From contig OX597817.1 in NCBI GenBank assembly GCA_951406725.2, forward strand, positions 82,522,001 through 82,586,000: a DNA stretch of 64,000 nucleotides, given 5' to 3'. This stretch comes from Octopus vulgaris. Its lineage: Eukaryota. Position numbers and translations under genes: made by a program. Numbering within the stretch: position 1 is the stretch's first letter; each line of letters begins with the position of its first letter. The notes below the pieces were generated by a model. It was not told where the DNA came from. It saw only the letters and a list, made by a program, of their open reading frames with translations, and did not search any database. Of this stretch, positions 16,268 through 61,113 are shown in pieces.

Positions 16268-17507
16268 TGATCGAACGCCACGCATCCTTTTCCAAGTAAG
16301 TTTTACGCACTCTTCTTCTTTACTGTCTCTTCTCTGTCCATCTCTCTCCTTCTCTTGTTTTTCATCTTTTCTGGTTTTTCTCTCCCATCCTTCCCTATTC
16401 TTCTCCTCTCCCCTTCACCGTTCCGTCTCTCTCACTCCTCCTCCTCGACTCTCTCGTCGCTGACACGTGACGATATGGAATCCATCTTTCTTACTACTAC
16501 CTCTGCAAAGACTAAACGGGCTTATACTGTCTCTTCATAAGCTCGTCTCCTTAAACGTTCAGAATAATTTTTCCATCGTCTTGACTTAACAACCCTCATC
16601 GTTTGATTTTACTGTTTTGTTCTCATTGTTCTGTCATTTACTGTTTTGTTCTCACAGTCCTGTTCTTGTTACGACTTTCATCACCCTCCGCAAAAAATCC
16701 CAAATTCAAATTGGCTTGAATGTAATGATGTAAGTTGTCCTTCTCTATGTCGTTTTCATTGTCTTTCGTGTGTGGAGCATCCTGACGAGGGGAGTGTATG
16801 TTTCCTTTAAAATATGGAAATTATGTCATATTATTTGACACGTCTCCGAAACGGCCCGTCGATGAAACTTTTAGATCCATTGAACATTATCTACGTATAT
16901 TAGTACGTCATATTAATGTTTTATAATTTCAAACTTTCCAGTGGCCTTCGTGTTGTAACTTGTAAATTTTTATTCCTTTGTATCTTATTGTGTGAATTAC
17001 TAATTCACTATGTCATTTATCATTTCGATGTTTTCTGTTTTGCCTACGTATTTATAAATATTTTAAAATATTTTAAATTACCCATGAGCTTTTATATGCT
17101 TGTGTTCTAACTCGTAAATTATTAATCCTTTATATCATGTCATGTGATTTTATAATTCACTGTCTTTTTATATCAATGTATCTATTTATGTGTTTATATA
17201 TTTTTAAAATGCCTACGTATTTTTAAATATTTGCGTGTTTTTAAATGTTAAATATTTATATGTTTATATGCTTGTATGTTTTTAATACTATATTATTGGA
17301 ACTTTATATTGAATTATTAATGTCGAAGAAAGTATACATATATACTGAATAGTCTATTGGATAATAGGTCATATTCCTCTAGTTTTCCGTTCATATTGCC
17401 TCCATTCAAATTATAAATTGGAACTTAGCTCTATTTGAGCACTTCGATTCTAGCTTGTTTCTGAGTATTGTTAATATTAACAATATCTATATAAAATAGT
17501 ATAATTC
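16268..17507 (+). mobile_element. Non-coding Penelope-like/retrozyme-like element between (TA)n arrays
   Basis: Bounded by (TA)n on both sides, strongly T-skewed, contains a complete hammerhead motif at 16778-16864. Confidence 0.5.
16778..16864 (+). ncRNA. Type I hammerhead ribozyme motif with extended stem II
   Basis: Stem I CAUC/GAUG; core CUGACGA 16782-16788; stem II GGGGA/UCUCC; GAAA 16848-16851; stem III ACG/CGU; GUC triplet 16858-16860. Confidence 0.75.
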
Positions 17508-17549
17508 ATATATATATATATATATATATATATATATATATATATATAG

Positions 17550-17938
17550 CCTTTATTTTTTACTTTTTTCAGTCATTTGGGTGCAGACATGCTGGGGCAC
17601 CACCATGAAGAATTTTTAGTCGAATGAATTAACCCCAGTATTTTTTGTAAGCCTGGTGCTTACTCTATCGATGTCTTGTATCCAACCACTAAATTATGGG
17701 GACTTAAACACACCAACACCGGTTGCCAAGCGGTTGAGGGGGAACAAACACTGACACAAAGACACATACAGAAATATATATATATGTATGTACATATATA
17801 CGATGGGTTTCTTTTAGTTTCCGTCTACCAAATCCACTCACGAGGCTTTGGTTGGCTCAAAGCTATTGTAGAAAACACTTGCCCGGTGGGACTGAACCCG
17901 GAACCATGTGGTTGGAAAGCAAGCTTCTTACCATCACA
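17550..17938 (-). mobile_element. SINE family A
   Basis: Reverse complement of head (ggaaccatgtggttggaaagcaagcttcttacc) and tail. Confidence 0.8.
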
Positions 17939-17951
17939 GACAAGATATATA

Positions 17952-19099
17952 TTGGGTTGGCAACTAAGTTCCCGCCGTTTTATTTAATTTTGGAATTTAT
18001 TGCATTTTAAAATTTTGGAATCTATTTTTTTTCTAGTTAATTTTAGTTAATTTTATTTATTTTCAGATAATGTCAAGTTAAGAGAAACGAGCATTTTCGA
18101 TACCTCCTCCTTTTTGCTTTTAATCAAGGTTCTAAGGTCGCAAAAGCTGCTCCCGACATTTATGCTGTGTATAGAGAGGGTGCCATAACACACACCTCGT
18201 TCTGGCCGTCCAGTTGAGTTCGATGAAAAGGGATTAAACCAACATTTGCCCGAATATTCTCCTCAAACAACAAACAGAGAAAATGGAATGCTCCCACACT
18301 GCTATAGAGAAGCATCGTCACTCGACGGGAAAGGTTCAGAAGTATGGAGCATGGGTTCCGCATGCTTTAAGTGACAACAACCAAAATCAATGGGCCACAA
18401 TCTCCGCTGGTTTGCTTGCTCGTCACCATTCAACTCATGGACACAAGCAACGATTTCTCTACTGAATCGTTACTGGCGAAGAAAAATGGTGCCTGTACAT
18501 CAATATGAATGAAGCAGCGTAAGGAATGGCTTAGCGACACCGAGCGTGAAACAAGATCTTCACCCGCGTAAAACGATGTTGTTCGTATGGTGATTATCCA
18601 TTACGAATTGCTCGAACGGAACCAAACGGTCAACGCGGAACTCTATGTTCAACAGATGGAACGACTCAACACGGCTATTCAAGAGAAAAGACCTAGTCGG
18701 CAGCATGGAGTTCTTCTGCTGCATGACAACGCCCGCCATCATATCGCCAATATGACCAAGGAAACCATTCAAACATATGGTTGGGAAGTGCTGCCACACT
18801 CGCCGTACTCTCCTGATTTGGCACCAACGAATTTCCACCTCTTTTGATCTCTTTCAAATGCTATGCGCGGAGTTTCGTTCAATACTGATGCAGAATTGAG
18901 AGCTTGGTTGGATCAATTTTTCGAGTCGAAATCGGGTGATTTCTACCAACGAGGTATTGAAAATCTTGTTGAACGTTGGAAGAAGTTGTAAACAACAAGG
19001 GTGAATACATTATTGATTAATTAGTTGTTATTTTTTATGAAACCATTTATAAAAAATTAAATTTTAAAAAAAACGGCGGGAACTGAGTTGCCAACCCAA
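17952..19099 (+). mobile_element. Mariner transposon (mellifera-like TIR), 1148 bp, transposase disrupted
   Basis: TIRs TTGGGTTGGCAACTAAGTTCCCGCCGTTTT / AAAACGGCGGGAACTGAGTTGCCAACCCAA; TA TSD; WVPHAL, IVTGEEKW, LHDNARHH, YSPDLAPTNFHLF. Confidence 0.95.
18070..19020 (+). pseudogene. Mariner DD34D transposase pseudogene
   Basis: Collinear fragments 18283-18465 and 18587-18847; stops, frameshifts and the third catalytic D mutated to N. Confidence 0.85.
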
Positions 19100-59850: not shown

Positions 59851-59934
59851 CAGAAGATACTGGATGAAGAGAAGCAGAACTGTTCACCCATGATTAGAAT
59901 GTGCAACAATACAGTTGAGAGTAGAGGTGAACTC

Positions 59935-60255
59935 TTTCAGTCACAAATGACCATGGGATTGCACTTAGAAAGTTCTCTTTCAAGGGATAAGTTTGGTCAA
60001 GGTTGTTTTGTGGAAGACCAGCAGTCGCACATGTATAACAGTCTCCCTTCTCCATGCCACCAAAAGAAAGGCAAAGGCTGATACATCTTGGCACCAGTGA
60101 CATTGCAACTCATTTCTACAGCTGAGTGAACTGGAGCAACACAAAACAAAGTATCTTGCTCAAGAATACAACACATAGCCTGGTGTAGGAATTGAACTCA
60201 CAACTCACAATTGTACACTAGATGTTCCAACCACTGAGTCATGAGCCTTCACTGA
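59935..60255 (-). mobile_element. SINE family C (third tail type), decayed
   Basis: Reverse-complement homology to 35370-35680. Confidence 0.7.
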
Positions 60256-60715
60256 GGTAAGACTATATTGGAATATATAATGAAAATCTTTACCCAGTAA
60301 AACATTCCATTCTGCCATTTATAAGCCAAATATATAATTTTTCGTTTAAATATTTGTTGATATACAAAAATTACAAAATAAAAAATGTTATGCAAACATT
60401 CTTTATTGTGAGTATAAACAATTCATTTAGACATTTACCATTTTGTTTATGTATGATGAAGTTTTGGTTAAGAAATGTTATGTTAAAATTGTGGACAAAA
60501 ATTATTATAAAATTCCCTTTGACATTCATTATTAGCTACATATATTATTAATATACATACAAATTCACAAATGTGAGAGATTTTGCACAGTATCTCAACC
60601 TGCTAGAAATAGAAGTTAAGTCTCTTTCAAATCAGATGAAAATGAGACAACATAACAATAACAAAATCTTGACTGGTAACAGTTTTTATGGAAAAATTAT
60701 CAAAATAAATAAATA

Positions 60716-61113
60716 TATACATTATTTACAATTGATGGATATATGACCTCATCTTGTTTGTTGTTAACACGCTTCGGCTGATATACCCTCCAGCCTTCAT
60801 CAGGTGTCTTGGGGAAATTTCGAACCTGGGTTCTCATTCCTAAGGTATTTTTCGATGCTATTATTATTATTATTATTATTATTATTATTCAGGTCACTGC
60901 CTGGAATCGAACTCGGAATCTTGGGGTTATGATAATAATAATAATAATAATCATAATAATAATAATAATAATAATAATAATAATAATAATAAAAATAATA
61001 ATAACAGCGAAAAATACCTTAGGAATGAGAACCCAAGTTCGAAATTTCCTCCAAGACACCTGATGAAGGCTGGAGGGTATATCAACTGAAACTGATATAC
61101 CCTCCAGCCTTCA
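60716..61113. mobile_element. tRNA-B-box/(AAT)n/hammerhead element in inverted arrangement
   Basis: Arms ~60775-60870 and ~60995-61090 are reverse complements; CUGAUGA at 60797-60803 (-) and 61060-61066 (+); stem II GGCUG/CAGCC; B box GAGTTCGATTCC (-) at ~60904-60915. Confidence 0.75.

Follow-up and report, generated by a model that had tools for sequence, protein, structure and literature searches.

Where do the eight hammerhead-like ribozyme loci come from that lie scattered over a 64,000-nucleotide stretch of the Octopus vulgaris genome (contig OX597817.1, positions 82,522,001 to 82,586,000; hereafter the window)? A first-pass annotation had attributed them to a microsatellite-dwelling system of retrozymes or parasites of Penelope-like elements (PLEs). 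On our analysis, the eight loci are likely to be solo, mostly mutated ends of truncated, decaying PLE insertions that belong to eight unrelated families. They resemble, and probably derive from, the pseudo-long terminal repeat (pLTR) ends of PLEs. The anatomy of their motifs, arms and tails is observed in the window itself, and the enzymology that could have shaped it is borrowed from other PLEs.

PLE pLTRs are known to carry minimal hammerheads that have low activity and cleave only as dimers, and thousands of heterogeneous solo minimal hammerheads have been ascribed to truncated PLEs (Cervera & de la Pena 2014, PMC4209133). The same work describes hammerhead pairs on opposite strands at distances of 100-700 bp, a bulge ahead of stem II and, in Schistosoma PLEs, ~1,300 motifs with a U3-A8 core (~1,300 vs 2,000 motifs); among the literature matches listed, it alone names U3-A8. 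The window motifs share with these minimal hammerheads the short stem I, the bulged nucleotide before stem II, the loopless or short palindromic stem III, the mostly solo and heterogeneous occurrence, the opposite-strand pairs and the U3-A8 variant core. They differ in that U3-A8 is used at 4/8 loci from unrelated families, in the 59-nt domain II at 16782 and in that no open reading frame (ORF) was linked to the window families.

All eight loci have the type-I order of hammerhead parts, within ~40 nt of where the annotation had placed them, with cores that start at 16782 (+), 24565 (-), 33627 (-), 40546 (-), 47566 (+)/47553 (-), 49231 (-), 51613 (+) and 60803 (-)/61060 (+). The claim of eight type-I hammerhead elements is confirmed in part. 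Only one of the ten motif copies, 16782 (+), passes a strict descriptor of type-I hammerheads (positions 3 and 8 of the core paired, stem II of at least 4 bp, GAAA, stem III, NUH, stem I of at least 3 bp; shuffle mean 0.07, with 2/30 shuffles reaching 1). The other nine have damaged stems or cores and are still recognisable. The 143 Rfam matches at E ≤ 1 include no hammerhead family, only microsatellite-driven miRNA matches, and the alternative core pairings G3-C8, A3-U8 and U3-G8 gave zero strict-descriptor matches in the window.

When stem I is relaxed to 2 bp, four matches appear against 0.2 in local dinucleotide shuffles (0/30), namely the annotated sites 16782, 24565 and 49231 together with 12819, which the annotation did not contain. 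The combination of core, 4-bp stem II and GAAA occurs twice with C3-G8 (0.15 in shuffles; 1/200) and three times with U3-A8 (0.51; 2/200), and among 14 other 3/8 combinations only A3-C8 comes near significance (2 vs 0.27; 7/200). A core-only descriptor in the style of PMC8557442 (spacer 7-20, 300 shuffles) finds 12 C3-G8 cores against 2.94 (0/300) and, for both paired cores together, 27 against 12.5 (0/300)—the excess over a dinucleotide-shuffled background that the annotation had named as a check—while unpaired control cores stay flat (32 vs 29.4; 102/300). Since the descriptors were chosen after the sites had been seen and the shuffles ignore repeats and coding remnants, these counts denote an excess rather than exact probabilities. 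They place the paired cores above chance.

Four loci carry the canonical C3-G8 core. The intact copy at 16782 (+) has a stem III that is a 4-bp palindrome with a 1-nt loop and a domain II of 59 nt, which is closed by 4-5 bp and has two possible inner hairpins; for the monomer, an alternative fold has the minimum free energy (-21.0 kcal/mol, against -12.6 for the hammerhead). A branched domain II was considered as an established structure and dropped, the insert folding no better than shuffles (z -1.4, 49/500). The host module is laid out as a pyrimidine-rich 5′ part, the hammerhead and an AT-rich 3′ part. The motif at 24565 (-) combines a bulged A, a stem II of 4 bp, two of them G-U, a loopless palindromic stem III and a 2-bp stem I, and that at 51613 (+) a 4-bp stem I, a 2-bp stem II remnant flanked by U.U and a 4-bp stem III with a 2-nt loop. 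In module 8, copies A and B are divergently oriented across (TAA)n. Copy A, at 60803 (-), has a bulged A and a 5-bp stem II, with A15.1 changed to G and ~3 nt lost at the cleavage site. Copy B reaches one base past GAAA and then continues as a 22-nt fold-back, without a cleavage site.

The other four loci (33627, 40546, 47566/47553 and 49231) carry the U3-A8 core instead of CUGANGA. Near-intact is 40546 (-), whose stems I and II are both of 5 bp (5+5 Watson-Crick pairs, with a G-C pair closing stem II) and whose stem III is palindromic; the GAAA box has one additional A. At 49231 (-), a 4-bp Watson-Crick stem II and GAAA are accompanied by 2-bp stems III and I, and 33627 (-) is the weakest of the U3-A8 cases. 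In the palindrome around 47557 both arms are broken, at differing positions of the arm alignment, as expected from independent decay of one intact motif.

The eight modules are mutually unrelated, with no BLASTN match between any pair at E ≤ 1e-3, which agrees with the dissimilarity noted at first pass. Copy depth was gauged from four runs aligned to 47330-51720; summed contig depth is not copy number, and the ratios, taken relative to single contigs over a unique stretch, are to be read as orders of magnitude. In 3/3 DNA-type runs, 47330-47770 reached ~1.7-5 x 10^4 times single-copy depth, 49094-49387 ~1.6-9.5 x 10^3 times and 51593-51720 ~4-7 x 10^2 times. The depth in run X13, which consists of contigs and is presumed to be RNA, was left out of account. 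The modules at 47334, 49148 and 51609 are dispersed multicopy repeats. Two families have additional copies within the window (the 47334 family at 34475 and module 8 as copy B). Parts of module 1 were found in 15/24 sequencing runs listed, under four organism labels and with a best share of 0.39 (no RNA run is listed among them), and the module-8 pattern had 0 matches in viral and metagenome contigs. One run (X1) is close to the window's organism, as one of its contigs agrees with the unique stretch at 753/754 letters. Over the whole stretch aligned to this run, cases in which other copies have G/C for a window A/T outnumber the reverse transitions by 114 to 48, in line with decay.

Inverted arms were confirmed at the three loci for which they had been claimed. 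In the element at 47334-47710, the left arm is ~60 nt longer than the right, forming a one-sided tail, and a 14-nt direct repeat borders the element (47334-47347 and 47697-47710). The family's second piece, at 34475, consists of 44 nt that end at the short terminus, joined to an oppositely oriented stretch of 15 nt from the long terminus; the short terminus is common to 34475 and 47696, and the longer one is found on one arm only. Tail-like features thus occur at 47334, 34475 and 49075. Six of the eight modules, the number said to abut (TA)n, have a TA run at their end as judged from the sequence; at 5/8 loci the core has a (TA)5+ run no more than 250 nt away, as compared with 15% of random positions. 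The exceptions to TA ends are the 47334-47710 element and 60803/61060, the latter lying around (TAA)n. Three of the four U3-A8 cores sit 85-127 nt upstream of a TA run.

By analogy, the arms in inverted orientation, the one-sided tails, the (TA)n flanks and the stems in the style of the Hydra clade all match published PLE footprints. Inverted truncated PLE copies and one-sided 30-40-bp tails have been described, and Naiad and Hydra PLEs target (TA)n (Hydra clade: 25/27 listed families; Craig et al. 2021, PMC8557442). The Poseidon PLE of Anolis, PAc, is reported to nick AT-rich DNA and to carry out extension on both strands; its reverse transcription (RT) has two start points within the RNA, both downstream of the hammerhead, which delimit the tail (Frangieh et al. 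2024, PMC11167929). In that system, cleavage is protein-assisted and dispensable for insertion in vitro, and no RNA-seq ends were reported at the cut site. PAc's activities would explain the window footprint, yet it belongs to another clade and another host, so only its mechanism is borrowed, and its ribozyme needed protein.

Transferred to Octopus, the mechanism would run as follows. A PLE protein with reverse transcriptase and GIY-YIG activities would nick AT-rich or (TA)n DNA, as published PLE work suggests, and reverse transcription would begin at an internal position of the RNA, not far downstream of the pLTR hammerhead. Copies of a few hundred nucleotides would then retain the ribozyme and lose the ORF, so that the many solo hammerheads without a nearby protein gene could be put down to an RT start close downstream. 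Priming on both strands or template switching is proposed to give rise to the inverted arms, and the use of two RT start sites to the one-sided tail. In the parent element, a loopless or short-looped palindromic stem III would restrict cleavage to dimers or to protein-assisted reactions. Microsatellite targeting may likewise account for the microsatellite flanks, and neutral decay of the solo copies after insertion for their defects, 9/10 copies being predicted inactive.

No PLE protein was found among the ORFs scanned. We scanned 420 of the 515 stop-to-stop ORFs of at least 48 aa against Pfam (95 low-complexity ORFs being excluded); above-cut-off matches were limited to two reverse transcriptase fragments (RVT_1, 11205 and 26718), each more than 2 kb distant from every hammerhead motif, and mariner pieces (18071, 18572 and 31491). 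As had been stated at first pass, none of the scanned ORFs encodes GIY-YIG. An autonomous PLE would hold ORFs for both reverse transcriptase and GIY-YIG inside the copy, and the window copies do not; no ORF remnant adjoins any module.

Several points weigh against an origin from PLE ends. The suggested linking of the families to Penelope ORFs found no link among the 420 ORFs, and an antisense ORF-like piece in module 1 (17317-17505) has three candidate relatives, none at E ≤ 0.1, in what was a weak search. None of six window motifs occurs in the supplement of PMC8557442, which includes the Octopus Naiad and Hydra consensus sequences, a result in which line breaks could mask matches. Depth covers only 3/8 modules. 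Among the 40 of 274 difference rows listed, none falls inside a core, so that the comparison of cores within a family comes down to the two arms at 47557. The polarity of the microsatellites is mixed—3′ of the core at 33627, 40546 and 49231, 5′ of it at 24565 and 60803/61060, while 16782 and 51613 have one on either side—and the tail of ~60 nt at 47334 is longer than the published 30-40. Finally, U3-A8 alone is marginal with the core-only descriptor (15 vs 9.55; 15/300), and requiring stem III gives 5 vs 2.2 (18/300). These last counts, the unclosed stem II of 33627 and the lack of an Rfam match would fit the view that only 16782, 24565 and 60803/61060 are hammerhead-derived, the AT-rich U3-A8 sites and 51613 having arisen by chance in ordinary repeats. 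We regard this as highly improbable, given the U3-A8 excess that emerges once stem II is required (3 vs 0.51), the pairing and palindromic stem III of 40546, the complementary defects of the 47557 arms, the fit of 51613 to the Hydra pattern in PMC8557442 and the position of three of the four U3-A8 cores 85-127 nt upstream of a TA run.

A descent from retrozymes, the annotation's own label, must be judged similarly remote. Here the loci would be monomer offspring of non-LTR retrozymes (LTR, long terminal repeat) whose tandem master arrays lie elsewhere and which form small circular RNAs. Retrozyme families do include dispersed monomers, the proportion of which ranges from 0 to 1, and are kin to pLTRs (Li, Clavereau & Pollet, bioRxiv 10.64898/2026.07.22.740005), and animal non-LTR retrozymes share with the window modules a non-coding nature, a type-I hammerhead, low GC and the tie to PLE pLTRs. 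Yet both defining papers describe retrozymes as tandem repeats in which successive units each contain a ribozyme (PMC7229834; bioRxiv 10.64898/2026.07.22.740005), and 0/8 loci form a head-to-tail tandem with at least two ribozymes: none of the 73 Tandem Repeats Finder (TRF) rows covers a motif, the pairs are inverted and head-to-tail repeats of 150-450 bp are absent from the window. The modules fail the definition for this reason, and the label is withdrawn. Moreover, Cervera & de la Pena (2020, PMC7229834) distinguish minimal PLE-type motifs, such as those of the window, from canonical retrozyme motifs, which have a 6-bp stem I and contacts between loops 1 and 2; in the window copies, stem I measures 2-5 bp and no Rfam match is obtained. 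Among Xenopus retrozyme dimers, only 1/9 cleaved (bioRxiv 10.64898/2026.07.22.740005). Somewhat less improbable, though still unlikely, is that some families are dedicated parasites: short non-autonomous elements with fixed ends, akin to short interspersed elements (SINEs), transcribed in their own right, mobilised by PLE proteins and with a ribozyme under selection. The very high depth of the 47334 family, the lack of adjoining ORF remnants and module 1, a free-standing 1.24-kb unit that TA runs flank and that has near-identical relatives, would all suit such a life style, and the idea of hammerheads as PLE parasites is raised in PMC8557442. The same picture, however, is expected from truncated PLE ends (PMC4209133), and the 56-nt piece at 34475 is a truncation within the 47334 family; no fixed 5′ end was seen.

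Truncated PLE ends thus remain the reading we prefer, and as such they add undescribed octopus families to a known class. The word system overstated the novelty, in that solo heterogeneous hammerheads, opposite-strand pairs and the U3-A8 core were published in 2014 (PMC4209133) and TA-targeting, hammerhead-bearing PLEs had already been catalogued for Octopus (Naiad_Obim, Naiad_Ovul and Hydra-1_Obim; PMC8557442). The Penelope link, the many distinct families and the TA preference, all part of the annotation, are supported by anatomy, copy depth and this literature. The window families resemble Hydra-clade PLEs in their apparent (TA)n targeting and in their occurrence in Octopus, as well as in a 4-bp stem III with a 1-2-nt loop (16782 and 51613) and a U.U flanking stem II (51613). 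The style was matched by eye to File S2 of PMC8557442, and style does not prove clade; the window motifs differ from that of Hydra-1_Obim, the motifs listed in File S2 all have C3-G8 cores, and the modules encode no protein by which to place them. PMC8557442 was the only source on a hammerhead in an octopus or cephalopod found in a literature search that included few subscription papers; an account that counts 31 PLE families as recently active in O. vulgaris leaves hammerheads and ribozymes unmentioned in the parts available (PMC13282606). The window families may already be catalogued as repeats in Repbase or Dfam.

Motif counts are not ribozyme counts, one copy in ten being intact here. Hammerhead censuses in molluscs are likely too low, because half of the loci use a U3-A8 core that standard descriptors overlook. 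A more far-reaching proposal, which we put forward tentatively and hold to be doubtful, is a hidden radiation of U3-A8 hammerheads in Octopus: several unrelated families, one of them with ~10^4 copies, would equal the canonical core in frequency and escape both CUGANGA-only and Rfam searches; some would spread as short parasites of TA-targeting PLEs that have no ORF, and a young family whose domain II is branched and 59 nt long would exist alongside them. On that view, and if the window were typical (8 loci per 64 kb in a 2.8-Gb genome), O. vulgaris would have ~10^5 such remnants, among the densest animal hammerhead loads. Families with high copy numbers and many termini are suitable for asking what PLE hammerheads are for, and it would be informative to see junctions in the genome or ends of RNAs fall at the predicted cut site. 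The fold-back of module 8 copy B (61088-61113) offers a hint in this respect (n=1): it begins at 61092, 3-4 nt before the predicted cut site, and might have arisen when the end of a cleaved RNA snapped back.

Coordinates of the hammerhead-bearing modules, their motifs and related pieces in the window
Feature	Coordinates	Strand	Description	Basis
Module 1	16268..17507	+	~1.24-kb non-coding element between two TA runs	sequence
Only intact motif	16778..16864	+	4-bp stem I, C3-G8 core, GAAA, GUC triplet	descriptor
Minimal C3-G8 motif	24537..24568	-	core intact; TA run 79 nt 5′	
Decayed U3-A8 motif	33590..33631	-	stem II unclosed beside core, 2-bp stem I; TA run 127 nt downstream	
Second piece of the 47334 family	34475..34530		56 nt between TA runs; hammerhead gone	exact matches of 44, 37 and 15 nt
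Near-intact U3-A8 motif	40511..40551	-	TA run 127 nt downstream	
Head-to-head inverted element	47334..47710		centre near 47557	
Left-arm U3-A8 motif	47520..47558	-	6-7-bp stem II, G12 lost, stem I broken	
Right-arm U3-A8 motif	47561..47600	+	3-bp stem I, G12 kept; 11.1 and 15.1 changed	
Inverted duplicate	49075..49109	+	exact copy of module 6's terminal 35 nt, across TA run	
Module 6	49148..49387	-	U3-A8 motif 49200-49233; TA run 85 nt downstream	
Hydra-clade-style motif	51609..51647	+	C3-G8 core	descriptor and by-eye match to File S2, PMC8557442
Module 8 copy A	60700..60857	-	C3-G8 core at 60803	
Module 8 copy B	61005..61113	+	94% identical to copy A over 86 nt; core at 61060	

Beyond the window, the 3′ end of Naiad_Obim as given in the supplement of PMC8557442 shows, by eye, a GAAA box ~25 nt upstream of a C3-G8 core, that is, the type-II order. 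This might explain the Naiads described as having half cores, which lie 35-50 nt apart; loops 2 of ~30 nt are reported there for PLE-X.

Three further sites in the window resemble hammerhead parts. The additional relaxed-descriptor match at 12817-12875 (+), with a 2-bp stem I and a 4-bp stem II, lies downstream of a long interspersed element (LINE) remnant and may be due to chance. At 52120-52170 (-), a C3-G8 core, GAAA and a 3-bp stem III stand within a two-copy repeat whose relative, at 47250-47330, is the repeat into which the 47334 element inserted; this is possibly a ninth, Hydra-style family, without a clear stem II or stem I and with a second copy that has no core. A near-perfect hairpin with ~25-bp arms at 63077-63135 begins at a minus-strand C3-G8 core and is not a hammerhead by our descriptors.

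The remainder of the window, with a GC content of 35.8%, is rich in microsatellites (73 TRF rows) and in dispersed repeats. Its commonest SINE pattern had 0 matches in viral and genome contigs and one in metagenomes; that contig (L001, 6537-6587) was dropped as a relative, having only a 51-nt SINE piece (88%) and microsatellites in common with the window, and a literature search for the SINE motif turned up nothing relevant. Decayed LINE remnants, putatively of the R4/Dong and RTE types, lie at 10500-12500 (+), 21750-23100 (+), 26300-27650 (+) and 45500-46250 (+). The closest relative of the LINE reverse transcriptase at 11205 is an Octopus sinensis protein (63%), with the others at ≤58% among the 120 matches listed. 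Tc1/mariner remnants occupy 18070-18850 and 31050-31870 (HTH_48 and Transposase_1 matches), and 47800-49000, where depth is high, is presumably another. Where module 8 copy B ends, a broken transposase begins (61112-62800, -; ORFs 61512-62003, 62100-62573 and 62480-62782), which has no Pfam match and is putatively of Chapaev type. Finally, an inverted pair of ~260 nt (20186-20443 and 23339-23600) is 94% identical across a distance of 2.9 kb.

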